From Candidatus Omnitrophota bacterium (GTDB lineage: Bacteria > Ratteibacteria > UBA8468 > MWAK01), in contig JAZDPL010000071.1 in the NCBI GenBank assembly GCA_043797665.1, positions 1 to 43,729 on the forward strand: DNA of 43,729 nucleotides. Reading direction: 5' to 3'. Of the stretch, positions 2-42,256 are shown piece after piece. Every line of letters begins with the position of its first letter. The first letter of the stretch is position 1. The notes under the pieces were generated by a model. That model was given only the letters and a program-made list of their open reading frames with translations. It searched no databases and was not told the origin of the DNA. Made by a program: the position numbers and the translations under genes.

Positions 2-559
2 CGGGTACCAAAAGTAACCGCGGATTTGGTCTCTACGGATAATATTGAAGGGGGCAGGTTAGCCACAGAAATTCTGATTCAAAAAAAAGGCAAAAAGATT
101 GGCTTCCTCTGTGGCGCCCCCCATCCCTCCAGTTCCCAGGAGAGGCTCTTGGGATACCGGAGAGCGCTCCAGGATAACAGCATAAGGTACAATACCCATT
201 TAATCAGGTATAATACTTATTTGGGTAAGAAGGGTGTCCCTTTAGACTTTGACTTTGGTTCCCAATCAGCCAGTACTCTCATTCACCTGGGGATTGACAG
301 TATCTTTGTGGCTAACGAACCTATCACCGTAGAAGTGATGAAAGCGGTTAAGGAGAGTAAAAAAGAAATAAAGGTAGTCTCCTTTGACGAACCCAAAATT
401 CCACCCCACCTGCCCCATCCCATCGCTTTCGTTACCCAGCCCCGGCAGGTGATTGGCCGGGTCGCGGGTCAGATACTTCTGGAAAGAATCAAAAGAGGGA
501 ACTCAAACGAACCGGCAAAACGAATCAGCCTTGCTCCTCAACTTATTAAGTTTTTCTGA
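2..559 (+). CDS. LacI/GntR-type transcriptional regulator, C-terminal sugar-binding domain (5'-truncated by the window edge)
   Basis: Frame is open from position 2 (RVPKVTADLVSTDN). Motifs V.TDN..GG.LA, ERLLGY..AL, IF.ANE, VVSFD and QP...IG..A..ILLERI are typical of LacI-family effector domains. Confidence 0.85.
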   Translation, partial: RVPKVTADLVSTDNIEGGRLATEILIQKKGKKIGFLCGAPHPSSSQERLLGYRRALQDNSIRYNTHLIRYNTYLGKKGVPLDFDFGSQSASTLIHLGIDSIFVANEPITVEVMKAVKESKKEIKVVSFDEPKIPPHLPHPIAFVTQPRQVIGRVAGQILLERIKRGNSNEPAKRISLAPQLIKFF

Positions 560-574
560 AGGAGGTGATATAAC

Positions 575-742
575 GTGAAAAATAGAAGAAACCAACAAAC
601 CATACTCCACAGCGGTCAAACTATGGTAAACTACTTATTCTGTGACGGTCATGTGGAGTCCTTGAGGCCGTTGGATACTTTAGGCCCTGGCGGTACTATG
701 ACTCAGCCCAGGGAAATGTGGACCAGGGTAGCCGGAGATTAA
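575..742 (+). pseudogene. 55-aa remnant of a prepilin/H-X9-DG protein (basic leader fused directly to the C-terminal motif)
   Basis: AGGAGGTG RBS at 560-567 and GTG at 575. Translates MKNRRNQQTILHSGQTMVNYLFCDGHVESLRPLDTLGPGGTMTQPREMWTRVAGD*. NYLFCDGHV matches the tails of the intact paralogues. Not in the ORF track. Confidence 0.75.
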
Positions 743-780
743 TCACAAGTGGAAATTTACCTTACAGGGGGAGGAGTGGT

Positions 781-3700
781 ATGAGACGCGTATATCTGAG
801 TGTTCTGGTATTCCTGACGATGTTTGCCATATGTGAAGTTGCAAAAAGTGCGGGTAGTGATCAAACGCTGACAGCACCTCCCGCCCCATATAAGACCGTC
901 GTCAAAACAGACAGCGTCATAAAAGTTGAGCCGGCCGTGAGGGAAGACGGCATTTTTTACGGCGACAAAGGGCTTATCGTCAATAAATCCGGCCTGCTCA
1001 TTCTTATGGCGGGAAACAAGATAGGCGAATTTTTCATCTATTTTTCTACTCCGTATTCTCCGTGGATAACAACGAATTTCAAGGATTTTCAGGAGGGCAA
1101 AACAGAAAGGAATCTGAAAGACCGGGAATTCATTTATACGGCCGTTTTCCCATTGGAAAAAGAAGGGACAGAGAATATGCCATATGGCAAATATCAACAA
1201 AAAGTAAAAGTAACTAAAGACAATAAAATAAGTATATCTTATAAATATTCCGTCCCCGAAGACCTGGGAAAAAACATTAAGGACACCTGCATGTTTTTCT
1301 GTATGCCTTTCGGTGTGGCAGCTTCTAAAAAATTTGAAGTTGACGGAGAAACTTTTGTAATATCCGATAAACCGGGTGAAGTAAAAAATTTATTTGAAGG
1401 CCGGGCAAAAACATTGGTGTTCAATCCGGGAAATCCGGAAACAGAATTTTCTCTAGAAATGACTTCTGATATGTTATTCCGGCTTGAGGAGACGCCAGAA
1501 AATATCTCTCTAAGGTTTGGTATGTTATGTAAAGCCGAGGAGGAAATTTCTTTCACCCTTGATTTAAGCAAAGTTTTGGAATCATCCCTTGTGGAGTCGA
1601 AAGACTTTCATTCAGGAGTGGATTTCTGGAAATCTGACCGGCTTCACGTTCCCGATTACAGCAAGTCCGTAAATCTGGCACAGAACCCGTCATTTGAAGC
1701 GGGGCTTAGATATTATGTCCTTCATACCACCTGGGGATGTTTCAAGAACAGAAGCAAACCGGTCTTTTCCGTAGACGAAAATGTCGCTAAATTCGGTAAC
1801 GGCAGTCTGGTGATAAACGCTTTTAAGGGAGAAGGTGCAAATAAAACGGGCTTTCTCCAAACCTTTGCCATACCCGTGTCTGAAGGTAAAAAATATACGG
1901 TCAGTTTTTACGCTAAAGGAAACAGAACACAACTTTACCTTAACTTAAGGAGTGTTACCGGAGCATGGCCGGTCTTTCCGGATTTCGCTAAGGAGGGGAG
2001 CAATATCTCAGTAAACGACCAAGGTGAAAGGTCTACTCCTACCCTCGGTATCACCGAGGACTGGAAAAGGTACGTCTACACTATTACTGCCCCAAACCGT
2101 GTTTTTACCCTGCTTATGGGGGTAAGTTATTATGGGGACGACCCTTCCGGGGAAGGCACGGTATGGGTTGACGGTCTTCAGGTGGAGGAAGGGGATAAAG
2201 CCACTGATTATGTTGAAAAACCTCTGCACGGTATCCTTCTTACCTCAAATCCCGATAATTTTTTGAGCGTTGAGGACAAGAAAATTGATGCCAGACTGAA
2301 AATTACCGCTCCCGCAAATACGGAAGGCAGTGTAACATGTGAAATTGAGGATTTCTTTTACCAGAAAATCTGGAAACAGAAATTCAACTTTAGCACGGAT
2401 GCGAAAGGAATTTTCGTGGTAAGTCTGCCGATAGAGAATCTGCTGGGCAAGGGAGTGTATATTGTGCGGGCTGATTTTGAGTTGAGCAATGGATATAAAG
2501 ACACCGACTTCTTCCGCATTTCCAGAATGGAATTTCTCAAAAACACTCATAAGAACAAAGATATCTTCGGTTCGAATATAGTGACTTATATTTCAAGGGC
2601 CAATGATGTTCTGAAGAGATGCCGGGACATCGGGTTCGGTTCCGCCAATTATGGAGCATACGACTTAAATAAGGATTATTTTGACCATATCGCTGAATAC
2701 GGCATATCATTCAGCGGACCGGTCGGAACGGTATCTGACGGAGGACATGGAAGTATTACAATTCCCGGGAAAGTTCTGATAGAAGGACTTTACGCAGTAG
2801 AAAGTGTTTCTCCGGAATTGGGGAAAAAGGTTGAAGATGCCTGTTATGAAAAAGCCGAAGCATATCCCTGGGTGAATACTTGGTGCCTGTCTTCAGAATC
2901 GGAGGGGAGATACGAACTTATCAAACAGGGGAAATTCCGGGATTTCGCAAAATTGCTCATGGCATGTTACCGGGGCGTCAAGCGTTTTGATCCGGAGAAA
3001 AAGGTGCAACTTGAGGGTGGACCCTGCAACATGATGCCCCAGGGTGGGACACGGCTTATAGACAGCTATCTTACCGGTGTGAATGGTGAAGTGAAATTTG
3101 ACGCCGTTTGCATTCATCCCTACCGAACCACGCCGGAAAATCCCGACCTGGACGATGATGCGGCGGCGTTCTTCGCGGTGCTGGATAAACACGGTTACCA
3201 GAACATGCCCGTCTACTGGAATGAAGGCATCTTTTATACATATTACAATATTCCGGCCTGGGGTCTTGACCCTCACAAGGGATGTTCCACAGACCACCAC
3301 CGGGCCGGTTGTCCGAGTTATCATATGGGCTGGGGCGAAAGAATTTCCGCGGCTTACTTTGCCCGAAGCTGGCTGGTGGCGCTGAAATACCAGTACCGGG
3401 TCAAACAATTTAACGGATGGTGCTCCTGGATGGAGATGGACGCCTATCTTACGCCGCTTGCCCTGCAGAAAATACCCAATACGTTAGGGCACCTTTTAGG
3501 CAATGCGGTTTTCAGAAAAGACATCCGTTTTGCTCCCGAAATAAGGTGCTACGTATTTGAGGACGAAAAACAAAGGCCGGTAGCCGCCTTGTGGTCGCAC
3601 CAGCCTAAGGTTGACCGGGGTTATGAGAACAGCCCGGTCGGACGTTTCAAGTTTGACGGAGTATCCATGGAAATCTTTGACTTGATGGAAAATAAACGTT

Positions 3701-4806
3701 CTGTCAGGAACGATACGTCGGGATTCACGGATATTCCCATTTCACCTTTCCCGCTTTTCATCCGGGGCGGGGCGGGAGAACTGGCAAGCCTCTGCAAGTC
3801 TATCCAGAACGGTCGGATTATTGATTCCGACAAGGCAGTGATTCAGATTTCAGCCAAACCTTTGGATTCATCCGAACTTGAGGTTGAATTCAGAAACCTT
3901 GTTACCAGGGAATTTAGAGGAAAAGCGGCCATAAAACTCCCGAATGAAGTCATAGAAAAAAATATCCAGGTGAAGGGAAAGTCTGTTGAAACCCTGATTA
4001 TACCCCTGCGGGAAAAAATCCCGTCTGACAGAATCGCTGAAATCAACCTGCCGGTTACCTTGACGGAAGAGGGGGGTAAACCGTTGGCCGCTAACCTTTC
4101 GTTCAATGCGTTTGCCGTGAAAAAACTGCAAGGGAAAATCGCGGTTGAGGGGAACGCCGGGGATTGGAAGGACATTCCGGCCATCCGTGTTAAAAACAGG
4201 AATATCAGCACAACCAGAGATACTGACAAACTTGAAAAAGTCGGCTATGAAGGTGACCATGAAGCTGAATATCAGATGGCGTGGGATGATGAATATCTTT
4301 ACCTGAGAGTCAAAGTTACCGACGATAAATTCTTTCATAACCCGAATCCAAAAAGTGGCGTCGGCGGAAGATGGGACAATGATTGCCTGCAGGTCTATAT
4401 TGACACTCTCGACGACGCCCGCAGCAAGGAGACAAGAGGATTTGACGGGAACGATTACAATTATGATTTTTTCCCGAATGAAGACGGCACTCTGACCGTG
4501 TTCCGGCGTTTTGCGCCGGAACAGCAGATAGCCGGAGGGCTTTTTGCGCCGAAGCCAAACATGGTAGAGCCGGAAATTAAAGGGACATTCCGGAAGACGG
4601 GAAAAGGTTATATCTATGAAATCGCTTTCCCGAAACATCTTATTGCCCCGGTACAGTTAAAGGCGGGAAGCGTTTCCGGTTTTGCGATATATATAGCCGA
4701 TCATGACGGTAGTTATCTCAAGAGCGCGCTCACAACCACGTCTCCGGGGACGGGCGGATACATGAACCCGCATCTTTACCCGGTTATGATTCTTGTTGAA
4801 AGATAA
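781..4806 (+). CDS. Large secreted multidomain glycoside hydrolase-like protein (CBM4/9-like domain, clan GH-A-like barrel, C-terminal CBM9/DOMON-like domain)
   Basis: GGAGGAG RBS before ATG 781; signal peptide MRRVYLSVLVFLTMFAICEVAKSA. NLAQNPSFE...VWVDGLQVEEG (CBM-like); FDAVCIHPY and PVYWNEG (GH-A-like); AWDDEYLYLRVKVTDD, WDNDCLQVYID and YIYEIAFP (CBM9-like). Confidence 0.75.
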   Translation: MRRVYLSVLVFLTMFAICEVAKSAGSDQTLTAPPAPYKTVVKTDSVIKVEPAVREDGIFYGDKGLIVNKSGLLILMAGNKIGEFFIYFSTPYSPWITTNFKDFQEGKTERNLKDREFIYTAVFPLEKEGTENMPYGKYQQKVKVTKDNKISISYKYSVPEDLGKNIKDTCMFFCMPFGVAASKKFEVDGETFVISDKPGEVKNLFEGRAKTLVFNPGNPETEFSLEMTSDMLFRLEETPENISLRFGMLCKAEEEISFTLDLSKVLESSLVESKDFHSGVDFWKSDRLHVPDYSKSVNLAQNPSFEAGLRYYVLHTTWGCFKNRSKPVFSVDENVAKFGNGSLVINAFKGEGANKTGFLQTFAIPVSEGKKYTVSFYAKGNRTQLYLNLRSVTGAWPVFPDFAKEGSNISVNDQGERSTPTLGITEDWKRYVYTITAPNRVFTLLMGVSYYGDDPSGEGTVWVDGLQVEEGDKATDYVEKPLHGILLTSNPDNFLSVEDKKIDARLKITAPANTEGSVTCEIEDFFYQKIWKQKFNFSTDAKGIFVVSLPIENLLGKGVYIVRADFELSNGYKDTDFFRISRMEFLKNTHKNKDIFGSNIVTYISRANDVLKRCRDIGFGSANYGAYDLNKDYFDHIAEYGISFSGPVGTVSDGGHGSITIPGKVLIEGLYAVESVSPELGKKVEDACYEKAEAYPWVNTWCLSSESEGRYELIKQGKFRDFAKLLMACYRGVKRFDPEKKVQLEGGPCNMMPQGGTRLIDSYLTGVNGEVKFDAVCIHPYRTTPENPDLDDDAAAFFAVLDKHGYQNMPVYWNEGIFYTYYNIPAWGLDPHKGCSTDHHRAGCPSYHMGWGERISAAYFARSWLVALKYQYRVKQFNGWCSWMEMDAYLTPLALQKIPNTLGHLLGNAVFRKDIRFAPEIRCYVFEDEKQRPVAALWSHQPKVDRGYENSPVGRFKFDGVSMEIFDLMENKRSVRNDTSGFTDIPISPFPLFIRGGAGELASLCKSIQNGRIIDSDKAVIQISAKPLDSSELEVEFRNLVTREFRGKAAIKLPNEVIEKNIQVKGKSVETLIIPLREKIPSDRIAEINLPVTLTEEGGKPLAANLSFNAFAVKKLQGKIAVEGNAGDWKDIPAIRVKNRNISTTRDTDKLEKVGYEGDHEAEYQMAWDDEYLYLRVKVTDDKFFHNPNPKSGVGGRWDNDCLQVYIDTLDDARSKETRGFDGNDYNYDFFPNEDGTLTVFRRFAPEQQIAGGLFAPKPNMVEPEIKGTFRKTGKGYIYEIAFPKHLIAPVQLKAGSVSGFAIYIADHDGSYLKSALTTTSPGTGGYMNPHLYPVMILVER

Positions 4807-4844: not shown

Positions 4845-6104
4845 ATGTATCTCCCTACTGACGATTCTCTCGTACGGACAATGGTAGAAAAAACAACCGA
4901 AATTCCGGTGCTGGATAGCCATCAACATCTCGGACCTGAAGAACCAGTAGTAACTGACCTATGCAGGTTGATGGTAAATGACAATTATCTGGCAACCGAC
5001 CTTGTTTCTGCGGGAATGGATACAACAACTATGAAATGTATAGCGGATACATCAATTCCTCTCTCAAAACGATGGGATTTGTTATTCCCACTGTGGCAGA
5101 AGGTTAAATATGGCTCATACGCTCAGGCAGAATTGGTTACATTACGAGATTTATATGGAATGGACGAGATGAGTGGTTCTAAAGTAATAGGAGTATCAAA
5201 ACGCCTTTCCCATGATTTTCAAACACCTGGTCTTTTCCGAAGGGTTCTCTGGAAGAAGTGTGGCATTAAGGTTGTTCTTACCCAAGGAGGATACTTCCAT
5301 CACGAAAATCCCGTGTTTTTCAATGTTAGTCGTCCCCTAGACAGGGCTGATTTCTCGTCTGGCGGAACGTTTGAAGATGATGCTCACAAGGTTGGAGTGA
5401 ACATACAAACAGTGGATGACCTTGTGCCGGCAATGGATGCACTTCTTCGCCACCACTCCAGTCAGGGAGCCGTTGGTTTCAAAATCGCTGCTTTACCATG
5501 GAGTGAACCATCATCTCGTGAACTGAAAATGGCTTTCTCTCACAGGGAACAGAAAATCACCAATCCATATACTACAACTAACCCGCTCATTCGTCTGTAT
5601 GTCTCGCGAATTGCAACCCTGGCAGAAGAATTGAATCTCACTGTGGCTGTCCATACAGGAGCCCCATGGACGAACTGGCTGGATTACAGAATTTGGGAAC
5701 CAACATCTCTCATCCCCCTATTTTCATGTTTCCGCAATACACGGTTTGACCTCTACCATGCAGGTATCCCGTATGGAACACAGGCGAGTTTGCTTGCTAA
5801 AGTTTTTCCTAATGTCTGGCACAACCTTACCTGGGCTCACATTATCAGCCCGGAACTGGCTATGCGGAGTATTGCTGAGTGGCTTGACCTTGTTCCTCTG
5901 AATAAGGTGTTGGGTTTTGGTGGCGACTATACAAATGAAACCGTTATCCTGACGTATGGACATCTAATGATAGCACGAACCAACCTCTGCAGGGTACTCA
6001 GTTATCGTGTGAAGTGTGGACAGATGGAAGAAGAGGACGTACTCAGAGTGTTAAAATCCTGGCTTTATGAAAATCCCTATCAGTTGTATAGAATGGGTAG
6101 GTAA
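4845..6104 (+). CDS. Amidohydrolase-superfamily protein (uronate isomerase-like)
   Basis: Metal-binding D-S-H-Q-H near the N-terminus, plus VAVHTG, FDLYHAG and LGFGGDY. Confidence 0.8.
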   Translation: MYLPTDDSLVRTMVEKTTEIPVLDSHQHLGPEEPVVTDLCRLMVNDNYLATDLVSAGMDTTTMKCIADTSIPLSKRWDLLFPLWQKVKYGSYAQAELVTLRDLYGMDEMSGSKVIGVSKRLSHDFQTPGLFRRVLWKKCGIKVVLTQGGYFHHENPVFFNVSRPLDRADFSSGGTFEDDAHKVGVNIQTVDDLVPAMDALLRHHSSQGAVGFKIAALPWSEPSSRELKMAFSHREQKITNPYTTTNPLIRLYVSRIATLAEELNLTVAVHTGAPWTNWLDYRIWEPTSLIPLFSCFRNTRFDLYHAGIPYGTQASLLAKVFPNVWHNLTWAHIISPELAMRSIAEWLDLVPLNKVLGFGGDYTNETVILTYGHLMIARTNLCRVLSYRVKCGQMEEEDVLRVLKSWLYENPYQLYRMGR

Positions 6105-6107
6105 CTG

Positions 6108-6480
6108 GTGGACGGCGACTGGCCGGGGCCGTGTTATTGCCCGAGGTGTGAAGCACGCTTCCGCAAGAAGACCGGTTATACCGGAAAAATGCCGGATTAC
6201 GATTTGAAGACGCCGGAAGGAATCGCCTGGCGGCAGACATGGTGTGATATCACCATCGAATGGCGCCAACGGTTAAAAACCCTGATTAAATCGTTGAAAC
6301 CAGACTGCCTGTATAGTTCAGGCAATATCAATCCGCACAGCCGGGCAACACCTGCACTTGACTGGCGTTCCGGAGATTTCTTCAGTCCAGTTTTGCCCAG
6401 AATTATGCAGAGCATTGCCATGCGGCGGTATACCACCCAGAACGTTCCTTATAGCGCAGAAATCGTGGATACCGCGTCGA
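6108..6480 (+). pseudogene. Internal fragment of a GH-like gene with a Cys cluster
   Basis: Starts mid-domain (DGDWPGPCYCPRCEARFRKKTG), parallel to FDG...CICPDCRQKFETETG in 26932-29082. No RBS and no N-terminus. Right boundary approximate. Confidence 0.6.
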
Positions 6481-6484
6481 AGGA

Positions 6485-6645
6485 CTTAATGCTTATGTTT
6501 CCAAATCCGCAAAAAAATATGTGATACCAGCACTCATCTTTGCCTTACCGGAATGGAAAGGAGAAGAATTGGAAGAAAAGGTTATGGCCGGGGGTTTTTG
6601 TGGTACGAAAGTTTATCTGCAATACGCACCTTCATATATCCCAGT
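6485..6645 (+). pseudogene. Probable internal fragment of a second amidohydrolase-family gene
   Basis: IPALIFALPEWKGEELEEKVMAGGFCGTKVYLQYAPSYIP resembles the GF.G.K.Y strand of Amidohydro_2 proteins. Boundaries approximate. Confidence 0.45.
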
Positions 6646-6736
6646 TAAGAACTGGGGTAAGGCGATAATTGCCGCCGGCCTCCTTTATCAAAGGATTAGG
6701 AAGAGAAGGGTTGGTTGTTTTGCTAAAAGAAAGTAC

Positions 6737-6764
6737 TTGACAGACCTTGATGGGGTAATAGAAT
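6737..6764 (+). promoter_or_regulatory. Sigma70-type promoter upstream of the prepilin gene
   Basis: TTGACA-16 nt-TAGAAT, followed by AAGGAG RBS motifs before ATG 6805. Confidence 0.5.
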
Positions 6765-6804
6765 ATCGGTTGGGAAAACTCCTTAAAAAGGAGAAAGGAG
6801 AAAA

Positions 6805-7569
6805 ATGGTTAAGAAGATGCTGAATCGGGTGGTTAGGATGTTTAACCCGGTCAGAATGGGGCAGAAGGTAGGGAAGATGGGTATTGACCCGTTTGTAACA
6901 CGCATACCCGTACCACAGAATTCTCAATATGTGTGGACCAAACACAAAAACGGATTCACCCTCATCGAGCTTTTGGTCGTCATCGCTATCATCGCCCTTT
7001 TGGCCGCGATGTTACTGCCGGCGCTCAATCAGGCCAGGGAGAAGGGCAGGCAGACAAAGTGCTTGAATAATTTAAAGCAGATCGGTTTGGCTATGATACT
7101 GTATACTGAGGATTACGACGACTATTTGCCTCCGGTAAGTCCTGTTGGCGGACAGTGCTGGGCACATCTGTTGGCACCGTACGTTAATGTTGCAACCGTG
7201 TCGGCCGCTACCAAGTCCGGCACAGTATGGCAATGCCCCTCTCGTGGGGACTATCCTGGTTATTATGGTTGGAAAATTCACTATATGAAAAATGTTTACA
7301 TCGGTGACTTCGGAAATATCTGTTGGGCCCCCGCCGTATGGAAATTGTCACAACTGAAAAATCCTACCGAAGTACTTTTTGCGGCTGATTCCAGAAAACG
7401 TCCTTCCCCTGAGTATGGAGAGATTTCCCCTTGGAACAGCCTACAGACGGCCCTTGCAGATTACCACACCGGTGGAGCAAATCTTCTCTTTTGCGATGGA
7501 CATGTGCAGTGGTACCTGAAAGCAGACGCGGTGAGTAAAAACGATGACTTTTTATGGAATAATCGGTAG
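6805..7569 (+). CDS. Prepilin-type N-terminal cleavage/methylation protein with C-terminal H-X9-DG motif (DUF1559-like)
   Basis: [29 protein letters not shown]....CLNNLKQIG; central [17 protein letters not shown]. Confidence 0.92.
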
Positions 7570-7614: not shown

Positions 7615-10039
7615 ATGAAAAAATTGATAATTTTAGTACTGGGGATTAACCTCATCTTTATGGTAAAAACAGGTGCCCAGGAAAGAGGTCTGGTTGCTTA
7701 CTGGAATTTTGATGAAGAAAAAGGAGATACCGTCCCTGACCTCTCCGGAAATAAAAATGATGGAATAATAAAAGGAGAACCGGGGAGAGTTAAAGGAATA
7801 AAGGGAAAGACTCTGGAACTTGATGGCGATGATTATATTGATTGTGGAAATAATGAAAGTCTGAATAATTTTGGAACCGGAGGGATTACGGTTGAATCCT
7901 GGGTATATGTTACCAAAGACCCATCCGTCTCTTACTCTTATCCTTCAATTGTTGAAAAAAGCTTTGGTGATTTTACAGATGCTCCGATCAAGCAAAAAGG
8001 ATTTAATTTAATTGTTACTACCACTGGTGGATATGGCAAAGTAATCTGGTGGGCAATTGGAGATGGAACCGGATATAATTCCACATCCTATTCTCCTTCT
8101 CAATTAACAGAAAGGTGGATTCATATTGTCGGAACTGCGGATAGCGCCTCAGAAAGCAGTCCCAGATTAAAATTGTACTTGGATGGTGCCCTGGCGGCTT
8201 CTGTCCCAAGAATTTATTTAGGTCCCATAGATGTTGGTTCAAAAAATTTGTATTTAGGTGTCTGGAAGAGTATGGAAAGATATTTCAGCGGTATTATTGA
8301 CGAAGTGAAAATTTATAATCGCGCATTGAAAGAGGAAGAGATAAAAGCAGGTTATGAGGAAAAGACAAAGGATTATGTTAAAACAATTACTTCCCCTCAA
8401 AAAGAAATCCCATTGCCGGAAATCATTGTAATTCCAACACCAAAAGAATTAAAATCAACCGGAGAAGAAATTCTCCTTACTTCCTCAGGGAAAATTTTAT
8501 TTGATGTTTTGTTAAGTGATTCTCCCGCGGAGACGGAAAAAATCGCGGCTCAGGAATTAGCCGGTGAAATATTTAAAATCTCGGGAATTAACCAAGGAAT
8601 AAAATTCTTAAGTGAAAAAGAACCTTCTGATAAACAAATTTTTTTGCCCTCGGAACGAACCTCTCTTTATTTAAAAAATATAATGTAAATCCACCAGCAA
8701 AAAAGGAAGGGTATACGATTAAAAAAATCAAGGATGGTGATCAGGAAATAATTTTCCTTGCCGGTAGTGACAAAACAGGCGTTTACTGGGCAGTCCAGAC
8801 TTTTTATCAACTTATCCAAAAAAAGAAAAATGAAATTGTTCTGAAAGTATGCGAAATAAATGACTGGCCTACTTATGCCATACGGGGAATAGGCACGGCA
8901 GGAGATGATGAAAGACCTGTCCGCTATAAATCAAATACTTTGATGAGCCACTGGTATTATCCGAATGACCTTTATAATCGCTGGGACAATCCGGGCAATA
9001 ATTATATAAGTGACATTCAAAAAATGAGTGAATTCGCGGTGAAAAGAGGCATTAACGTAATGCAAATCTTAAATCCGGTCTGGGTTGAAGGTCACGAAAA
9101 GGGTGGTGAGAAGAAGATAAGGTGTTCCAGCCAGGAAGACCTGGATAAACTTTTTAAGGTATATAAATTAAGCCTTGATAAAGGGAGCAGGATTGTTTCT
9201 TTTTTCTTTGATGATTTCGTTTCTACCGGCGATGAAAAAGGCCAGCTATTCCTGACGCAACCTGAAGACCGGAAGTTCTTTGAAGGAAACATCGGCAAGG
9301 CACATTGCTATGCCCTGAAAGAATTATCTGAAAGAGTAAAGAAAGATTTTCCTGATTGTGAAATTACTTTTTTACCAGGACCCTATCAGGACATTCCCGG
9401 ACCGGAACATTATTATTTTAAGGAATTTAAGGATGCGCCACCGGATACCATATTTCACTGGACCGGACCTTCCCCAGGTAACAATGCGGTATCCCTCAGT
9501 TACACGGAAGAACAGTGCAAAAATTATCAGTCAGGCATTGGTGGAAGAAGATTTGTAATCCATGACAATGCCCCTGGCCATCTGCACACAACAAGCGGTG
9601 TGCGAATGTTTGACCTCTATGCTGAAAAATATGATGGTCTATGGAAATACTGTTATGGAATTCAGGCGATGGTTGGTTTCTCTCCGGTATCGGAATTGAT
9701 GAACTACGATGCCATAATGGCGGCTGAGTATATGTGGAATGCGGAAAACTACCAGCCGGAATTGTCGCGCCGGAAAATATTGGCTGTCATGGCCGGTAGA
9801 GATGCTATTGAGTACCTATTAGTTTTCCGGGAAATTTATTTCCGGATACTGGAAGAATATGTGGAGAAAAAACCGCCATATCCTTTGGAAGAAAGGGTAA
9901 ACAATCTCAAAATGGGAATGGAAGTGATGAAAAAGTCTCTGGAAGAGATTAAAAAAAATGCCCAAACGCAAAACTGGTAAAGGAATTGGAAGAAAATTAT
10001 TACCGGTTGACCGAGAGGGTGGTTCTGGAAGGTATTTGA
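7615..10039 (+). pseudogene. Secreted LamG + GH20-domain-2-like + GH84-like hydrolase, split by two single-base frameshifts
   Basis: Signal peptide; LVAYWNFDE...FSGIIDEVKIYNRAL (LamG); VIPTPK. After the T7 run at 8639-8645 the shifted frame continues EGY...LAGSDKTGVYWAVQT...INDWP...RG into ORF 8940-9980 (FFFDD, FHWTG, AEYMWN). After the A8 run at 9951-9958 another shift continues CPNAKLVKELEENY...EGI* to 10039. Confidence 0.75.
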
Positions 10040-22450: not shown

Positions 22451-22479
22451 TTGACAAATATCTAAATTTTTAGTATATT
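22451..22479 (+). promoter_or_regulatory. Sigma70 promoter of the GntR-pilin-hydrolase operon
   Basis: TTGACA-17 nt-TATATT. Confidence 0.7.
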
Positions 22480-23683: not shown

Positions 23684-23700
23684 AAAGGAGGAGAATGGCA

Positions 23701-26931: not shown

Positions 26932-29082
26932 ATGAGCCGACCAAAAAAAGGGAATTATGAACGTTATTATGACCGGACCCTGTTCCGGGTTTCCGAGAAC
27001 TATCTCCTGCCCGACCAGAAAGTCGGCGGAATTCCAAGGGAGGATTTTGAAAAAAAACTGGCTGAATGTGGTGTGGAATCCCGATGGATCGGAGTTTATG
27101 ACCACGGTGGACCGCGTTTCAGTTCTAACTTTATCCCTATATCCAAACGCGTTCCCGGCGATTTGACGTCTGAATTGAAGAGATGGGTGGATATTGTCCA
27201 CCAGGCGGGTATGAATGCGGTCACCTGGTGTGCTGTATCCCATTGCGAATCGGGTTGGGCGGAACATCCCGAATGGCGCCTTGTCTATATGGATGAGAAT
27301 CAAGACCTGAAACACTCCTGTTGTATCAACACCTCTTACGGCGAGGCGCTTATCGGCATGACATTGGAATTCTTTGAGAAATTTAATCTTGACGGCATCT
27401 GGTTTGACGGCGCCAATTTTACCGGATTTCCTCTTCGCTCCGGTTGCATCTGTCCTGATTGCCGGCAGAAATTTGAAACCGAAACAGGTTGCGTATCACC
27501 AAAGACAGTCAATTTTGGTAATAAAGTTTTCCGGGTGTGGGTGCAATGGCGTTTTGACATGTATTCGGCGTATCTGAAAAAGTTGGTTGATGCCATCCAT
27601 GCCCGTTATCCGGATAAAGTCATCGGAATAAACCATTATCACCGGTATGACCCCAATGCCTGGCTTACCGCCTGTCCGCTGGACCCCTTTGAATGCGATA
27701 TCGTTACCGGCAGTGAATCTACGGGCCGTACGGATTTAGCCTCTTTTTCCGCAAAATTGGCTTCGGCTTACGGCCGAAAACATTTTGACGTCTGGACGGC
27801 GACATTCCGATGGAAAGGGGGGAAAAACTGGCAGTTCCATGAACCTCTCGCTTTAATGCATCATGCCGCAGCCTGCCTCACCTTCGGCGGGTATCCTGTC
27901 TTTGGTTTTGAAACAGACATCCCGGCGGGAGCGATGTCTGCATACGCGGAGTCCTTTTTTAAACCGGCGGCAGATTTCTTACGCCGGCGGTCCCCGTATG
28001 TGGAGATTGAAAGCGCCAATCCGGTAGCTCTGCACATCTCCCAGCAAACCGAGACCTTCTTTTTTGGGCGCAACCCGGACAGCCCCGGTTTCGGCTGGTA
28101 CTGGGAGAGTGTGCTGGGTTGGGACCAAATGCTGAATGAAACGGGCTTAGGCTCAGATTTCATATTTGATAAACACCTGAACGCAGAACGCCTGAAACGT
28201 TATAACGTGGTTATTCTGCCTCTGTCCTTAGGGCTTTCGGAAGAACAGGGGAAAATCCTTAAGGAGTATGTCAGGAATGGCGGGGTGCTGGTACTGGGAC
28301 CCTGGGCCGGCAGATTGGATGTAGCAGGGGAACCGGTTGTTGGTGGAGGTGTTCTGGAGGAATTACGTTCCGTGGACGAAGGAATCGTCCCGGCCGCGGA
28401 TAAATTCGCCAGGAATACAGTATATCTCAAAAATCAGGCCGTGAATATTTCAGGACTGCATGGTTTTGGAGTATTCACTATGGCCGCGGAACAGACAGCG
28501 AAAAACGGGGCTGAAACGGTAATGTTTCAAGAAGAAACGGCCGTCGCAAAGGGTGACCTGTCCTTTCTTTACGATCGGGACTTGCCAAAAAAAGCGGCGG
28601 AACGCGTCCTGTCTGCCGTGACAAGGCGGCGGTTTGGAAAGGGACATGTCATTGACCTGGCAGCTGACTGGGGCGCCTCTTTCTACTATGCCCCAAGTTC
28701 ACCCATGCGTAAAACGCTGATCTCCACTCTGGAAGATCTGACCGTTTTTCCGATAGCCGTGAAAGCTCCGGCCTGCGTTTCAACGGCGTTCCGAAAAGAA
28801 AAGGGCGGCGGTTTGCTGATACACCTGCATAACTGCCCGGTCACCATACACCAGAGTGGAAATAGTCATATACCTACGCCCGAGGTGTGTTATGCCAACA
28901 TAATACCAAGGGATATAATACCCATATGCGACGTAAACATTGAGGTTCGGGGACTAAAAATCAAAAAAGCAAACCGGTTGGTGGAAAAACCTGAATCTCT
29001 ATCCGTGGAAAAAAATGGGGGTGTCTTGATAATCAGGCTGGGCCGGCTTGATTTGCACGAAATCGTCAATCTTTCTTTTTGA
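26932..29082 (+). CDS. Cytoplasmic glycoside hydrolase-like protein (TIM barrel + beta-galactosidase trimerisation-like domain)
   Basis: No signal peptide; HPEW, DGIWFDG, CICPDC and L..YNVVILP....LS......L.EYV.NGG.LV. Confidence 0.7.
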   Translation: MSRPKKGNYERYYDRTLFRVSENYLLPDQKVGGIPREDFEKKLAECGVESRWIGVYDHGGPRFSSNFIPISKRVPGDLTSELKRWVDIVHQAGMNAVTWCAVSHCESGWAEHPEWRLVYMDENQDLKHSCCINTSYGEALIGMTLEFFEKFNLDGIWFDGANFTGFPLRSGCICPDCRQKFETETGCVSPKTVNFGNKVFRVWVQWRFDMYSAYLKKLVDAIHARYPDKVIGINHYHRYDPNAWLTACPLDPFECDIVTGSESTGRTDLASFSAKLASAYGRKHFDVWTATFRWKGGKNWQFHEPLALMHHAAACLTFGGYPVFGFETDIPAGAMSAYAESFFKPAADFLRRRSPYVEIESANPVALHISQQTETFFFGRNPDSPGFGWYWESVLGWDQMLNETGLGSDFIFDKHLNAERLKRYNVVILPLSLGLSEEQGKILKEYVRNGGVLVLGPWAGRLDVAGEPVVGGGVLEELRSVDEGIVPAADKFARNTVYLKNQAVNISGLHGFGVFTMAAEQTAKNGAETVMFQEETAVAKGDLSFLYDRDLPKKAAERVLSAVTRRRFGKGHVIDLAADWGASFYYAPSSPMRKTLISTLEDLTVFPIAVKAPACVSTAFRKEKGGGLLIHLHNCPVTIHQSGNSHIPTPEVCYANIIPRDIIPICDVNIEVRGLKIKKANRLVEKPESLSVEKNGGVLIIRLGRLDLHEIVNLSF

Positions 29083-29101
29083 ATGCTGCCCATATACCTT
29101 C

Positions 29102-36464: not shown

Positions 36465-37349
36465 ATGAATGAAGAAGCGTTCCGCGAGATAGAGGATTTA
36501 GGAATCCTGAAGCGCTTTCAGGCAGACCTTAAACTTTTGACCGGCCTGGGGTTTGACTTCATCGATACCCAGGCAAAACACTCCCTGCCCTTAAACGCCA
36601 TTAAGAAATATACCCCTTTTTGCAGTCTTGTCCACACCAAACCTTTAGGCAGAACCGCCTGTGAGGAATCTACCCTGAAAGCAGTGGCGCAATGTCTGAA
36701 GACAAAACAGCCGGTAATGTCCAACTGCCATTTAGGCCTGGTAGACGTGTACATCCCCCTGATTATCCACAACACCGTGACCGGGGTTCTGACTACCGGA
36801 CAGTTCCTTTTTTCAAAACCAGATGCCCCCGGTTTTAACCGCATAAAAAAGAGGATGGCTGGCTTTGGTTTAAACCTGAGCAGGGCGAAAGCCGATTATC
36901 TCTCCATCCCGGTCATCAAAAAGGAACGCGTAAAGGCAATCGTTGACCTCATCAATGTGGTCATAGAGTACATCCGGGAAGCGGAACACAAAATTCTGGT
37001 GGCGGGAGACGTTACCCGGAAAGATAAACTAAGACAGGCACGGGAATTTATTGAATCTAAGTACACGCAGGACATTTCTCTGGCTGACGCGGCTTCCGCA
37101 GTCAACCTTAGCCCCTCCCGATTATCGCATCTTATGAAAGAGAGGTTAAATACTAATTTTACTGCTTACCTCAACGACCTGCGGGTTCACTGGGCAAAGT
37201 TCTTTCTGACTAACACCAACCTCAAAATCATTGAGGTCGCCTCCCGGGTCGGGTTCGGAAACCTCAGCCATTTCAATCACCTCTTCAAAGAAAAGGTCGG
37301 TCTCTCACCCCTCCGGTTCCGAAAACAGCAGAATAGTACAAGAATTTAG
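36465..37349 (+). CDS. AraC-family regulator with a PocR-like sensory domain
   Basis: FC.LV....G...C, CHLGL....P.......G....GQ; C-terminal double HTH ...EVA..VGF.N.SHF...FK...G.SP..FR. Confidence 0.9.
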   Translation: MNEEAFREIEDLGILKRFQADLKLLTGLGFDFIDTQAKHSLPLNAIKKYTPFCSLVHTKPLGRTACEESTLKAVAQCLKTKQPVMSNCHLGLVDVYIPLIIHNTVTGVLTTGQFLFSKPDAPGFNRIKKRMAGFGLNLSRAKADYLSIPVIKKERVKAIVDLINVVIEYIREAEHKILVAGDVTRKDKLRQAREFIESKYTQDISLADAASAVNLSPSRLSHLMKERLNTNFTAYLNDLRVHWAKFFLTNTNLKIIEVASRVGFGNLSHFNHLFKEKVGLSPLRFRKQQNSTRI

Positions 37350-37470: not shown

Positions 37471-37490
37471 AAACTTGCTCAGAGGAATAA

Positions 37491-37675: not shown

Positions 37676-38401
37676 ATGATACGAGATTCTTCACCTTTGG
37701 CTCAGAATGACAGAGGGCATGCCTTCACACTTATCGAACTTTTGGTCGTTATTGCGATTATCGCCCTTCTGGCGGCGATGTTACTGCCAGCACTGTCTCA
37801 AGCCAGGGAGAAAGCAAAACAGGCACAGTGCATGAATAATTTGAAACAGTTGGGATTAGGTTATTTTATGTATACGCAGGACTACGATGATAACATCCCT
37901 GCTTTGACATATAATTTAAATTACTATGAAAGTTGGCTGGATGGCGAATATGCTTATACGGGAGCTCGTCTATTAAAAAATTTAGGTTATATTGGTAACT
38001 ATAAAATTGGCTGGTGTCCCAGTGCTAAAGGTTGGTATTCCTTATCTAAAAGTTCGCAACTCGCTGGTTATTTTATGCGTCTGTTCTATTTTGACGGAGT
38101 TTACTCTTGGAATAATCAGAGTAATTCTTGGCACTGCATGAAACTGGGTAGGATACGTAACCCGTCGGGAACAATGTTACTGGCGGATCCGGTCTGGGAC
38201 AACTTCCTTGGTGCCTTTCCTCATGGCAATAACAACTTCAATGTCCTCTTCTGTGATGGGAGTGTACGTCATGTTGTAGACAACGGGCTTACAGTATACA
38301 ACTATGTCTCAATTGAACCCGCATGGAATTGGGAAAGTCCTTGTCGTACCACAGGTAGATATGTAGAAATGGCTGCCGGAAACTCTCAGCCGGAGTTTTA
38401 G
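37676..38401 (+). CDS. Prepilin-type cleavage/methylation + H-X9-DG-like protein (DUF1559-like)
   Basis: GAGGAGG RBS at 37664-37670; [52 protein letters not shown]. Confidence 0.92.
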
Positions 38402-38436
38402 GCATTTCGGGAAACTAAAGGAAGAAAAAAGGGAAT

Positions 38437-40869
38437 ATGGGTAAGAGAATAATGAAGCGGATGGTTGAAATGTTGTTTTGTAGTTTAGGGACAATATTTG
38501 TTCTTATGGCTTTGCCACTGCGGGCAGGAGAACTCCTCCTGGCGGAAAAGGGAACCACTAAGTATGCCATCGTACTTTCTAACCAAGCCAGTAAATCGGA
38601 AAAGACTGCCGCGGAAGAACTGGCCGGGTACCTTCAGGAAATAACCGGAGCTACCTTCCAGATAATTACTGAGGATAAAGAAGTACCTGGCCCGCGTATC
38701 ATTGTTGGTCCGGGTACGCTCGGTAATTCCATTCTGGGCAAGGAAGCCGTTGGCCAGATGGCTGAGGAGGAATTCATTATCCGAACCGCAGGTTCTGACC
38801 TCCTGCTGGTTGGAGGCCGGCCCCGAGGGACGCTTTATGCGGTCTATTCGTTTCTGGAGAACGACCTGGGTTACCGGTGGCTGAACTGGTACGGTAACGA
38901 AGTGATACCCAAAAAAGAAACCCTTCGGGTAAATAGGATTGACCGCAAAGAAAAACCCGCCTTTAGATCAAGGGACGTCTACTTCCGTAACTATACCGAT
39001 ATGGAACAGATGAAAAGATTTCTCATCTGTAATCGTATTCAAGGACCTAACCTCCGGTGGCTTCACGGAGATGAATATATTTCCCGGTACGGAGGAATTT
39101 ACTACCGAGAAATAGCACCCGGGTGTCACACTCTCTTCTATTACATCCCTCCAGGCGAAGCCCCCACAAGATGTTCTTTTGCGTACTTTCAGTCAAGAGA
39201 CCAAAATAATTACTTCAAGACCAACCCGGAGTATTTTTCTTTGATCGACGGTCGGCGGGTACCCTGCCAGCAGTTGTGTTTCAGCAATCCTGGACTGCGA
39301 CGTACCCTTACGGCGGAGGTCGAAAAATATATAAAATTCGTCGAGGGAGAAGGTGACCTGTCTATTTCGGCGGTCGGGGGAAAAAATCTCCTGTCTATTT
39401 CGGCGATGGATTCTCCTGGTGACTTATGCCAATGTCCTGAATGTCAGGAACTTGTGAAACGCGAGGGAACACCTGGTGCGCCGTTATTTGACTATCTGGT
39501 AGAATTGGCAAATTACATCCGGGATAAGTATCCGGGGGTCTTTATCACCACCCTTGCCTACCGCCGGGGCCAAACAGAAAAACCGCCCCTCCATCTTAAG
39601 ATGCCGGAGAATGTAGTCATTGTCTTTGCTCCTATCGACAATAACTTTTCAGCTCCTTTTGAGGACCAGTCAAACGAAGAAACCTTTGAGAATATCAAGT
39701 CCTGGACTTCAGTAACCAAACATCTCCTGGTCTGGTACTATCCAAACCCTTACGGTGATATGCTTCCCATAGGGAACCTTGAAAATGCCGCAAAAGATTT
39801 TCGGTTTTTCCGAAAAATCGGTGTGGAAGGATTCATGCTGGAACATGATTCCGGTATCTATGAGTCGCATCACCTTGCGGATTTGCAGACGTGGCTATTA
39901 GCCAAATTGATGTGGAACCCGGACCAGAATTTTAATACACTCACAGAAGATTTCACCAATAATTTCTATGGTAAGGCCGCTCCATTTATCCGGAAGTATC
40001 TCTACGCACTGGAAAAAGCGACTCAAGGAATGACCACCACCATGTCCTGGATTCCGGCAGCCAGGGCATATTGTTTTCTGACGCCAGAGTTACTGATTGC
40101 CTCCCAAAAGATATTTGACCAGGCGGAAGAAGTGGTTCTCAATGATCCGGTTCTCTTGTTACGCGTCAGGCAGGCCAGAATGAGTCTGGACCGCGCCTCG
40201 TTCCACTTCCGGAGAGATATTTCGGCCATTCCGGACTCAGGATTAGAACGGGAAGAAATAGCCCGGCGTTACCGCGACACCTATCAGAAGACGATTGAAA
40301 AAAGGATTAGACCGGAATTTAGGCAAGAATTTTCCAGATATGTGGAAGATTTTTTCAATCCGCGGTTGAGGATAACGTCGACACTCAAACTTAAACCCTT
40401 GCCTGTCCCACTCAATGAAATTCCCGAAGAGAAGGTTCAACAGGTGGTTCCGGATTCCTCACAACTCTATCGTGATGCAACAATCGAAAAGGACCCGGAC
40501 TCGGCTTCCGGAATAGCCATAACCAAAGAAACCGGAGGAGAACTCCCCTTCAACTTAGGTTATTATGACGGAACCACCAAACGACAATTGCCTCGCAACA
40601 TAACGAAGGATGAAATATGTTCCAGCGGCTACAATCTTTATAAAATTGGCCGAACAACCTTGAACGAACAGTGTCTGGTCTGGATAAGCAGTTCCTGGTG
40701 GATAGGGTTTCCTGCTATATCTGCTTGTTACGATAGTGATGACCCTGAAAAAGAATGGGACATTTACGCCTCTCTCCGGTTTGAAGGACCAACCTATCCG
40801 CACGGTCCAAAGAGTACGGTCGACCGGGTCTTTGTGGACCGGGTGGTGCTGGTTCCAGTCGAGGAATGA
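38437..40869 (+). CDS. Secreted DUF4838-family protein
   Basis: Signal peptide; AAEELAGYLQEITGA; RGTLYAVYSFLE..LGYRW; HT; PEYF; QLCFSNP; MD....CQC..C; LAY; KLMWNP. Paralogous to 29102-31579. Confidence 0.82.
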   Translation: MGKRIMKRMVEMLFCSLGTIFVLMALPLRAGELLLAEKGTTKYAIVLSNQASKSEKTAAEELAGYLQEITGATFQIITEDKEVPGPRIIVGPGTLGNSILGKEAVGQMAEEEFIIRTAGSDLLLVGGRPRGTLYAVYSFLENDLGYRWLNWYGNEVIPKKETLRVNRIDRKEKPAFRSRDVYFRNYTDMEQMKRFLICNRIQGPNLRWLHGDEYISRYGGIYYREIAPGCHTLFYYIPPGEAPTRCSFAYFQSRDQNNYFKTNPEYFSLIDGRRVPCQQLCFSNPGLRRTLTAEVEKYIKFVEGEGDLSISAVGGKNLLSISAMDSPGDLCQCPECQELVKREGTPGAPLFDYLVELANYIRDKYPGVFITTLAYRRGQTEKPPLHLKMPENVVIVFAPIDNNFSAPFEDQSNEETFENIKSWTSVTKHLLVWYYPNPYGDMLPIGNLENAAKDFRFFRKIGVEGFMLEHDSGIYESHHLADLQTWLLAKLMWNPDQNFNTLTEDFTNNFYGKAAPFIRKYLYALEKATQGMTTTMSWIPAARAYCFLTPELLIASQKIFDQAEEVVLNDPVLLLRVRQARMSLDRASFHFRRDISAIPDSGLEREEIARRYRDTYQKTIEKRIRPEFRQEFSRYVEDFFNPRLRITSTLKLKPLPVPLNEIPEEKVQQVVPDSSQLYRDATIEKDPDSASGIAITKETGGELPFNLGYYDGTTKRQLPRNITKDEICSSGYNLYKIGRTTLNEQCLVWISSSWWIGFPAISACYDSDDPEKEWDIYASLRFEGPTYPHGPKSTVDRVFVDRVVLVPVEE

Positions 40870-40969
40870 AAAAACAGATAAGTAAGGGATAATCCAAAAG
40901 AACCAGTTTGTTATCTTTTCGACCTTAAAGCCTGAAAATCCGTGTCCCTATTATTAAAGAGGTAATTCT

Positions 40970-42256
40970 ATGACTGACCGATTCGGCGATGGACGCGACT
41001 GGTTTTTTGAGGAGCGTTTTGGTTTGTTCGTGCATTGGGGGTTGTACGCCATTCCCGCCTGGCATGAACAAATTCAGTATAGAAAGAGAATTCCGCGAAA
41101 GGAGTATGAAAAGCTGATCTATGAGTTTAACCCGACCCGTTTCGTCCCAGACACGTGGTTGGATCTGGCGGAGGAGGCGGGCATGAAATACGTCTGTTTC
41201 ACCACAAAACACATTGATGGTTTCTGTTTATGGGATACAGCGCAGACAGATTACAATGTAATGCATTCTCCCTACGGGAAGGATGTTCTTGGAATACTTG
41301 CCGATGCTTGTCACCGCAGGAATTTCCCCCTCTGTCTGTACTATTCGGTTGTAGACATGCACCACCCGAATTATCCTAATCAGAACCGGAGCTATGAGTT
41401 GGCCGGGCCAGAGATAGGTGATGAGCCGGATTTGGATAGGTACATGATTTTCGTGAAGGAGCAGGTCCGGGAGCTCTGCACCCAGTACGGGGAGATCCAC
41501 GGTTTCTGGTGGGATGCAAACGTAATGAAACACAGGGACCCATCGATCAACAGTTTGATTCGTTCTCTGCAGCCAAAAGCGGTCATTAACGGACGAGGTT
41601 TTGATGACGGCGATTTTTGCACGCCTGAGCGGGATTGGGATGATTCTGTAAATAAACTTCCGGCTTTTAAGCGTCCCACCGAGGCCTGTCAATCAGTGGG
41701 CACGGAGAGCTGGGGGTATAAGGAGGATGAAAATTACTACAGTGATATTCATCTCATTCGAAATATTGACAAGATCCTGGCCAAAGGAGGTAATTACCTC
41801 CTGAACGTCGGTCCCACAGCGGACGGCAGTATCCCGCCTGAGGCGGTGCGGATCCTGAGAACCATCGGGAAATGGTATCATGCTGTCCAAGAGGCCTTTG
41901 ATCAGAGTGAACCTGTCTCTCACATGACCGAAAACCCAGATGTACTACTGACAAGAAAAAATAATATTTTTTATGTTCATCTGTTCAAGTGCCCGGCCAG
42001 TACGAAAGTAATGCTCAAGCCCATAGATGTGATGCCCCGGCAGGCAAAACTACTTAACACAGGCGCGGAGGTAGAAGTCCGCGTGGATCTTCTTCCCAGC
42101 TTACATCCGGAGAATAAAAAATATTTGTACATCCGCAACCTGCCGGTCAATGAACTTGTGAACACGGTGATGGTTGTGAAGTTGAAGTTTGATAAATTTC
42201 CCGAATCGGGTTTCGAAGACCAAGGTGATTCACCATTCATGCGGCTCCAGTCATGA
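40970..42256 (+). CDS. Alpha-L-fucosidase (GH29), no signal peptide
   Basis: WF...RFGLFVHWGLY, FNP..F, AGMKY...TTKH.DGF.LW, EL.TQYG...GFWWD (nucleophile), SWGY and GGNYLLNVGP. Confidence 0.93.
   Translation: MTDRFGDGRDWFFEERFGLFVHWGLYAIPAWHEQIQYRKRIPRKEYEKLIYEFNPTRFVPDTWLDLAEEAGMKYVCFTTKHIDGFCLWDTAQTDYNVMHSPYGKDVLGILADACHRRNFPLCLYYSVVDMHHPNYPNQNRSYELAGPEIGDEPDLDRYMIFVKEQVRELCTQYGEIHGFWWDANVMKHRDPSINSLIRSLQPKAVINGRGFDDGDFCTPERDWDDSVNKLPAFKRPTEACQSVGTESWGYKEDENYYSDIHLIRNIDKILAKGGNYLLNVGPTADGSIPPEAVRILRTIGKWYHAVQEAFDQSEPVSHMTENPDVLLTRKNNIFYVHLFKCPASTKVMLKPIDVMPRQAKLLNTGAEVEVRVDLLPSLHPENKKYLYIRNLPVNELVNTVMVVKLKFDKFPESGFEDQGDSPFMRLQS

Follow-up and report, generated by a model that had tools for sequence, protein, structure and literature searches.

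Pilin-headed gene blocks in the window

The window analyzed in this study, a stretch of 43,729 nucleotides, is contig C78 of the 2.69-Mb, 86% complete assembly (genome G000 in what follows) of a Candidatus Omnitrophota bacterium (GCA_043797665.1), and it carries genes for pilin-like proteins of the DUF1559/H-X9-DG family that precede genes for carbohydrate-active enzymes (CAZymes). The host is a diderm, because LpxA and LpxI are encoded in the window and secretins in the genome. An earlier note, made from the sequence alone, had described four repeats of one gene order, pilin followed by glycan-degrading genes, and had proposed that each pilin captures one glycan in a pilus-based analogue of a polysaccharide utilization locus (PUL). 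Three full prepilins with downstream genes were confirmed, and the fourth proved to be a tail-only remnant.

All genes of these blocks are on the plus strand. Positions 2 to 10037 form one co-directional, decaying cluster rather than two clean modules. The cluster begins with a LacI-type regulator, truncated by the contig start, with a C-terminal sugar-binding domain (2..559; PF13377, E 5e-12), followed by a 55-codon pilin remnant (575..742) which in a tail-only scan consists of a start and an H-X9-DG tail. The remnant scores 21.7 bits with TIGR04294 (cut-off, 19), and its head is deleted, as are the N-methyl helix and CPS motif that the earlier note ascribed to the pilins. The next gene encodes an exported protein of 1341 amino acids (781..4806), described earlier as a giant glycoside hydrolase (GH), for which CBM4_9 and CBM9 were the sole Pfam matches and a PDB sequence search gave none. 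Its middle is probably a clan-A glycoside hydrolase barrel, judging from language-model look-alikes in GH39/42/5 clusters of the Atlas (0.90-0.91; a lead only). An Amidohydrolase_2 gene (4845..6104) and two gene fragments copied from other loci (6108..6823; 93% identity over 123 amino acids to a 707-amino-acid gene product of C48 and 88% over 40 to an amidohydrolase of C49) separate it from the first full prepilin (6805..7569; predicted cleavage G|F, mature from 6955), which thus has no adjacent regulator. The LamG and GH84-like N-acetylglucosaminidase domains (PF13385 and PF07555) reported after this pilin are present, with a signal peptide, in a gene (7615..10037) that two frameshifts, near 8660-8690 and near 9975, have disrupted and that is truncated ahead of a HEPN/nucleotidyltransferase pair.

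In the third block, a sigma-70 promoter-like site (22451..22479), near-consensus by 11 of 12 matches and called by consensus match only, precedes a regulator with a GntR helix-turn-helix and a LacI-type sugar domain (22493..23683), and a prepilin starts 11 bases past the regulator stop (23695..24486; mature from 23764). Of the three GH-like genes claimed to follow, one encodes a glycoside-hydrolase-like protein (26932..29082; GHL6/GHL10/GH42M) and one an exported protein with DUF4838 and CBM9 (29048..31579). The remaining gene (24540..26930) encodes a 796-amino-acid protein with a signal-peptide-like start, no match in Pfam or PDB, and no paralog in the genome. The G+C content of positions 22484-31579 is 54%, compared to 45% on either flank, which suggests that the block arrived as a single unit.

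The fourth block (36465-43595) does have a regulator, a PocR-sensor AraC protein (36465..37349) that the earlier note had overlooked. It is followed by a prepilin with an A|F cleavage site (37676..38401; mature from 37724), an exported GH67N and DUF4838 protein (38437..40869), a GH29 alpha-L-fucosidase-family protein (40970..42256; PF01120, E 3e-70), and a DegT-type aminotransferase, the final whole gene before the contig end (42348..43595). A REP-like palindrome lies past the AraC gene (37412-37470), and a repeat-like stretch at 37660-37720 is the leader of the pilin; many paralogs have such leaders. Because contig ends cut the first and fourth modules, the genes beyond them are not visible.

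In all three full modules the next gene lies 36 to 54 bases past the pilin on the same strand and encodes a large or lectin-domain product with a signal-peptide-like start; PDB sequence searches gave no match for three large pilin-neighbor proteins. Pfam scanning of 32 window proteins revealed no transporter family, and the only window gene predicted to encode a polytopic membrane protein (32824-35886) sits between modules. Rfam riboswitches were found neither in the window nor in 13 pilin loci of G000.

All three full pilins match N_methyl and, over the cut-off, the N-terminal part of DUF1559 (PF07596), of which only the first 40 to 50 of 268 positions align. They share a 16-letter motif, the CPS motif, and the H-X9-DG tail, while their middles align poorly and overall identity to pilin 6805 is 37 to 41%. 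Pilin 6805, like the remnant, passed the TIGR04294 cut-off; for 23695 and 37676 the H-X9-DG tail is visible in the alignment, with no TIGR04294 row at E 0.001. Matches of the pilin in the PDB sequence search were confined to the N-terminal helix. This is a very large family. At an E value of 1e-10 or lower, one window pilin matched 100,504 clusters of 50% identity, shared-helix matches included.

G000 as a whole encodes 63 of these pilins, 57 found by a strict motif and 6 by profile; a local tail profile recovered 62 of those known. A class III signal (G, A, or S at -1, F1, E5, and a hydrophobic helix) was present in 57/57 paralogs, in which F1, E5, P22, C36, Y50, and C94 were invariant and H171, N176, D181, and H183 nearly so. 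C36 and C94 probably form a disulfide. Tryptophan and tyrosine make up 12.4% of the variable middles and loops versus 4.7% of the proteome.

An AlphaFold2 model of pilin 6805 (204 residues; pLDDT 80, pTM 0.77), built on the 57-sequence paralog alignment, has the type IV pilin fold, as the earlier note would predict: a long N-terminal helix (3-53) on an antiparallel sheet (strands 110-112, 141-146, 174-179, and 184-188). The best structural match, over the whole chain or the head, was PilA4 (Z 6.1, rmsd 3.3, 118 residues aligned), followed by EpsG (Z 5.3), a type IVb pilin (5.1), ComP (4.8), and PilV (4.7), and 16 of the first 17 matches were pilins or pseudopilins by title. The model is one pilin-type domain with no two-lobed fold of a solute-binding protein (SBP), and no SBP_bac_1, 6, or 8 match was found with Pfam. 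Since the H-X9-DG motif occupies the last two strands, its role looks structural. Model confidence is low in the variable loops.

Pilin library of the genome and its neighbors

The location of the pilins was compared with that of other families in a set of 2359 genes of our own calling, in which the families were placed independently by whole-genome Pfam scans. LacI-type genes lay within one gene of a pilin in 20/35 cases (background, 5.2%; p 3e-17) and within three genes in 28/35, and within three genes of a pilin were also 11/12 DUF4838, 14/25 CBM9, and 17/22 LamG genes (background, 13.7%). Binomial p values for the four independently located families ranged from 8e-7 to 3e-17. Viewed from the pilins, a LacI-type gene was directly upstream of, or in frame with, 20/61. 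The gene after the pilin was co-directional in 58/60 cases, with gaps mostly shorter than 160 bases; it was long (median, 668 versus 279 amino acids), and its product looked exported in 27/60 cases versus 232/1820 by a crude hydropathy rule. LamG genes were direct neighbors of a pilin in 10/22 cases, and 15/22 were stand-alone and lectin-sized.

The gene before each of the 60 pilins beyond the window and the three genes after it (positions -1 to +3) were also scanned. This covered 205 of 210 genes, the exceptions being a contig-end fragment and four genes around the C52 pilin. By hand count, 82/205 had GH, CBM, LamG, F5/8, DUF4838, DUF6259, or DUF5696 matches, compared to 8/140 genes in 20 randomly chosen blocks that lay over five genes away from any pilin (Fisher p 6e-14). 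The co-localization with CAZymes and LacI/GntR genes that the earlier note anticipated thus holds genome-wide.

Several further features of these operons were recorded. URO-D-like genes of the corrinoid methyltransferase type are very frequent in the pilin-CAZyme operons (L013, L015, L019, L030, L031, L032, L039, L040, and others) and possibly serve O-demethylation of methylated sugars. A LacI-type regulator is in frame with the pilin at C8:31840-33723 and C65:29409-31298 of G000 and in a locus of relative G001 (L174:3576-5321). As fusions, the C8 and C65 cases were set aside as probable read-throughs; at C65 this is probable because of a palindromic insert and because the pilin's own ribosome-binding site and start remain. 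A pilin of housekeeping type with the H-X9-DG tail (C1:5713-6336; L122) lies beside an O-antigen-ligase/TPR gene, an arrangement known from glycosylated major pilins, and is a candidate major subunit.

The genome contains the filament assembly genes that a pilus would need, in line with the earlier note: one PilD prepilin peptidase, 12 T2SSE-family ATPases over the cut-off (4 of them PilT), 4 secretins, and PilB, PilM, PilC/GspF, GspG, GspK, and GspD genes. PilT was present in 64/65 genomes of the class. A family member stands at the end of a four-gene cluster of minor-pilin-like genes (L048). PilE holds a comparable position among the minor-pilin genes of Pseudomonas.

No TonB-dependent receptor was found in G000 (PF00593 and PF07715, 0 matches each) or among the 205 pilin neighbors. 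The surroundings of the seven ABC-permease matches point, by inspection, to uptake of phosphate, peptide, and molybdate/tungstate, and there was one SBP_bac_1 match. Among 69 predicted polytopic proteins (46 scanned in one set, most others earlier), the plausible sugar carriers were three proteins each of the MFS and DUF6785 families and one each of SSF and EamA. The SSF gene and two of the DUF6785 genes lie in pilin operons, so the claim that the modules lack transporters is true of the window blocks and of most modules, not of all. A conserved-looking membrane cluster near a housekeeping-type pilin (C63:11579-20638; L183), comprising a DUF6785 protein, a 1456-amino-acid M28-peptidase/FtsX fusion, a family-less protein of 10 to 11 helices, and a TPR protein, is a candidate for a shared inner-membrane importer.

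TIGR04294 matches were found in 31/31 genomes of the class versus 0/14 controls. The order of regulator, pilin, and CAZyme gene recurs in the relatives G017, G020, G028, and G001, and G004 has LacI, pilin, and an SBP_bac_1 gene in succession. G004 also has 11 SBP_bac_1 matches (L158-L164), most without adjacent permeases and often among CAZymes; its relatives have 1 to 3. Named genomes supplied a further 77 loci, of which the upstream gene was scanned at 66 and the downstream gene at 62 (at the rest no pilin motif or neighbor was found). By hand count, 15/22 Lentisphaeria loci had LacI, GntR, or AraC upstream and 9/22 a CAZyme-type gene downstream.

Pilins and TonB-dependent receptors in cobalamin and zinc-type operons

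Two members of the family are conserved enough across the class to be followed from genome to genome, and both belong to operons whose ligand is known or narrowly guessed. In G000, a pilin on C85 (39557-40288; L178:3555-4289) comes after cbiB, cobD, cobQ, btuF, btuC, btuD, and cobO, in an operon in which btuB and tonB were not found; the btuF call starts inside the domain, so its 5' end may be damaged. Orthologs of this B12 pilin were detected in 39/65 class genomes (E 1e-35 or better; best-per-genome identity, 44 to 52%, with one at 41%). A cobalamin riboswitch lies upstream of the pilin at 9/12 loci (none in G000, and two loci cut by contig ends) and at 4/6 further loci, and btuF lies within 1.5 kb downstream at 8/11 loci of relatives.

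In other genomes of the class the same slot is occupied by a receptor. G024 and G061 have riboswitch, btuB, tonB, btuF, cobO, and btuC in the same order, with btuB-tonB in the place of the pilin; in G041 and G013 the riboswitch is followed by btuB, and in G001 and G011 btuB lies beside cobO. G002 and G008 were classed as btuB genomes by 51% and 80% identity to the BtuB of G001, with tonB adjacent. The B12-pilin ortholog was found in 0/8 btuB genomes versus 39/57 others (p 3e-4) and, when all 11 genomes with a receptor-like match were counted, in 2/11 versus 37/54 (p 0.005). The swap recurs inside three genera (g1, g3, and g14). Of the two genomes with both a TonB-dependent receptor and the B12 pilin, G052 has a receptor that is weakly BtuB-like, and in G049 the receptor heads an operon of znuA, znuC, znuB, and a methyltransferase gene.

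That zinc-type operon provides the second case. A second conserved pilin precedes znuA-znuC, heading znuACB, at 14/14 loci examined and was found in 36/65 class genomes, including 7/9 in the genus of G049. It was not found in G049 itself (44 of 46 candidates scored), where the TonB-dependent receptor stands ahead of the same genes; L167:736-4444 and L227:1-4583 show the pilin or the receptor as first gene of the operon. The znu-linked pilin has many conserved tryptophans and a GGC motif and is without a His-rich motif. In G000, neither this pilin nor znuA was found.

Within the B12 and zinc groups the variable middles have 58% and 60% identity, compared to 23% from one group to the other and 19% for the paralogs of G000. 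By these alignments, the middles that the earlier note called unrelated are conserved per function. The B12 pilin is followed by different genes (BtuF, homocysteine methyltransferase, CobU, DUF4838, or XseB) at different loci, while its head remains 58% conserved, so that the head tracks the ligand, not the neighbor. A model of the B12 pilin was dropped (pLDDT 45), and a complex prediction of its head with BtuF (score 0.00) was used neither for nor against any reading. At one locus of G017 (L243:1280-8219) a cobalamin riboswitch and the B12 pilin are followed by DUF4838 and a 1089-amino-acid exported protein, and a second riboswitch-pilin of this genome precedes a GntR-LacI gene (L239).

Reciprocal replacement by TonB-dependent receptors in the B12 and zinc-type operons is independent support for a receptor function. 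Because the pilin gene takes the place of btuB-tonB in operons that retain btuF and btuC, the absent step is the outer-membrane one, and we infer that the pilin performs it. Only this step is replaced, not ABC uptake, since in relatives the pilin precedes btuFCD, znuACB, or an SBP_bac_1 gene. On balance, the window pilins are probably ligand-specific minor pilins on a shared retractile type IV filament that do the job of SusC/SusD or BtuB, binding and assembly being predicted. The broader proposal, to which we give somewhat less than even credence, is that DUF1559/H-X9-DG pilins serve as outer-membrane nutrient receptors of a class that works without TonB. A cell would have dozens of interchangeable heads, each under its own regulation, and would mount the induced ones on one retractile filament, by which glycans, cobalamin, and metal complexes would be reeled in via a secretin. 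The window modules would be its glycan arm. The pilus-based PUL of the earlier note gains from the co-located regulators and CAZymes and from the receptor swap, and needs amendment in that the family is not restricted to glycans, having B12 and zinc-type members, and in that only the outer-membrane step is covered.

In the mechanism envisaged, a sugar would lift repression of its operon, and PilD would cleave and methylate the prepilin. The constant helix, E5, P22, the C36-C94 pair, and the H-X9-DG hairpin would fit the pilin to the filament, and specificity would come from the variable loops rich in tryptophan and tyrosine. The exposed head would bind the glycan outside the cell and be retracted through the secretin into the periplasm, a ComP-like route. 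Retraction would pass the cargo to co-encoded periplasmic CBM/LamG lectins and hydrolases, which would receive and cut the glycan, or to BtuF, ZnuA, or an SBP, and a small shared set of inner-membrane carriers would complete uptake.

A number of observations weigh against this proposal. We know of no retractile pilus that imports small solutes. The structural Z scores are modest (best, 6.1; according to the tool, Z <8 can mean a common arrangement), and Foldseek gave no match for the pilin model at E 0.001 or better. Among control genes of at least 500 amino acids far from pilins, 6 to 7 of 17 are CAZymes; some hydrolase clusters (GH95, GH116, and GH2) are without a pilin, and about six pilins lie in housekeeping surroundings (C1, C13 twice, C52, C63, and C85). 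Similarity of pilin heads did not follow that of neighboring enzymes (2/12 pairs versus 64/1473, p 0.10), two recent duplicates excepted. In G000 itself, no cobalamin riboswitch match was found for the B12 pilin (150 of 231 candidates scored), and the pilin sits after cobO. Kin are not independent in the exclusion counts, and all genomes are incomplete (btuB genomes, 70 to 93%). Outside Lentisphaeria and the class, LacI was upstream in 1/44 cases and a CAZyme downstream in about 5/40, so the glycan arrangement is concentrated in certain lineages and not general to DUF1559 genes. Finally, window pilins 37724 and 23764 had no clear orthologs in 64 class genomes, with family-level matches only, near E 1e-31. 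The B12 and metal paralogs carry the swap evidence, and the extension to glycans is therefore made by inference.

The pilins might instead be adaptors for export or display, each binding the product of the next gene, which the filament carries to the surface, so that nutrient binding would fall to the partner instead of the pilin. CofB-CofJ and TcpB-TcpF are precedents for pilin-carried export. The long and frequently exported products of the next genes would suit such a role, as would the LamG genes that directly adjoin pilins or are of stand-alone lectin size, the T2SS-type GspG, GspK, and GspD genes of the genome, and the usual position of BtuF or ZnuA directly after the B12 and zinc pilins. 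We nevertheless consider it unlikely, because the gene after the B12 pilin varies under a conserved head, several pilins precede enzymes without an export signal, head similarity does not follow partner similarity, and the B12 and zinc operons have no secreted enzyme. The filament might also be dispensed with altogether: if the helix were an inner-membrane anchor, the protein could be a tethered periplasmic binder or sensor whose ligand enters via porins or open secretins. The Pfam family name, SBP_bac_10, is in keeping with this, as are the pilins directly behind or in frame with a regulator (two loci of G000 and one of G001 in frame) and the Tuwongella proteins found in the Triton-soluble as well as the SDS-soluble fraction (PMC8567305). 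Yet E5, P22, and the small residue at -1 are kept in 57/57 paralogs, as expected for cleavage and polymerization, the fold resembles pilins rather than SBPs, btuB-tonB is what is replaced while btuF and btuC stay, and the in-frame open reading frame of C65 retains the pilin's ribosome-binding site and start. This explanation is accordingly quite improbable.

Slightly less credible still is adhesion only, in which substrate-induced adhesins anchor the cell on a polysaccharide particle and nothing is imported. It leaves unexplained the cobalamin riboswitch control, the position before btuF or znuA, and the reciprocal occurrence with TonB-dependent receptors, even though aromatic-rich variable loops would suit adhesins as well and type IV-like pili have been proposed for glycan attachment in Akkermansiaceae (MUL2; PMC13174399) and Fimbriiglobus (cited in PMC11131199). 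Chance, or hitch-hiking of an expanded family scattered through a CAZyme-rich genome, would accommodate the CAZymes among distant genes and the decayed pilin and broken hydrolase of the window. It is refuted by the genome-wide counts, including the binomial p values, the fixed orientation, and the short gaps, and the same order in relatives and Lentisphaeria also speaks against it, leaving a very slim probability.

If the receptor reading is correct, it would reveal a new route across the outer membrane and explain how glycan-rich diderms feed without SusCD. The ligand of each pilin would be predictable from the operon that it heads, and the variable heads would provide a natural binder scaffold of a new kind. 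For the B12 and zinc-type members, whose ligand is known or narrowly guessed, the reading can be tested directly.

Other genes of the window and known systems

Between the glycan blocks the window contains a HEPN-nucleotidyltransferase pair (10287-10986), a small gene with a PIN-like gene without family match (13899-14729), and a Phd/YefM-ParE pair (32097-32556), two of which border glycan blocks. An integrase fragment overlapping a tRNA gene (16057-16128), together with a short RHS-like fragment, lies at 15368-16602; by its sequence this segment is the remains of an integrated element. On the minus strand at 32824-36335, a 1020-amino-acid protein combines an M50-type intramembrane metalloprotease region with two cyclic-nucleotide-binding domains and has weak NCBIfam matches to daptide and bacteriocin-transport-associated proteins. 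Its gene is flanked by a 150-amino-acid gene upstream and a Cys-rich 69-amino-acid gene downstream.

No description of these loci or of the pilin/receptor swap was found in a literature search that covered mostly sources outside subscription journals and no supplements, and the accessible parts of PMC11131199, PMC3542564, PMC6098224, and PMC12637624 contain nothing on these loci. The novelty would lie in the uptake system; both the pilin family and the type IV machinery are already known.

The SusC/SusD PULs of Bacteroidota and BtuB-TonB-BtuFCD provide one surface receptor system per substrate. The pilin loci resemble them in combining, for each substrate, a regulator, a private surface component, and hydrolases or an ABC system, with a pilin in the btuB slot behind the riboswitch. 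What sets them apart is that beta-barrel, plug, TonB, and SusD are all missing; PilB/PilT would supply the energy and a secretin the passage. ComP of Neisseria, PilV, and PilX are, like the proteins described here, pilin-fold subunits, the first two being among the structural matches (Z 4.8 and 4.7). The ComP head recognizes a ligand for uptake by a retractile pilus. ComP, however, is one gene with a DNA ligand, compared to about 60 paralogs under separate nutrient regulators in G000.

In the Sulfolobus bindosome, sugar-binding proteins with prepilin-like signal peptides are thought to form a pilus-like assembly on which growth on sugars depends (PMC3387779). They are binding proteins of the ABC type, and the archaeon has no outer membrane, whereas here the head has the pilin fold and SBPs are separate genes. 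Within the PVC bacteria, the Akkermansia MUL2 locus ties a type IV-like pilus to glycan use, with a proposed role in attachment (PMC13174399). In the part of that source available, it is a single conserved four-gene locus with no substrate-specific paralog library and is not described as DUF1559.

The closest relatives of the window pilins are the PVC proteins with DUF1559/SBP_bac_10 (PF07596), N_methyl (PF07963), and TIGR04294, which share the same domains and motifs and a large paralog expansion. In Tuwongella, the family numbers 91 genes, of which 25 are expressed and which are often flanked by signal-peptide genes, and it is expanded in Planctomycetales (PMC8567305). The literature found assigns no function to the family. 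In the genomes described here, its members are flanked by sugar regulators and CAZymes, and they alternate with TonB-dependent receptors.

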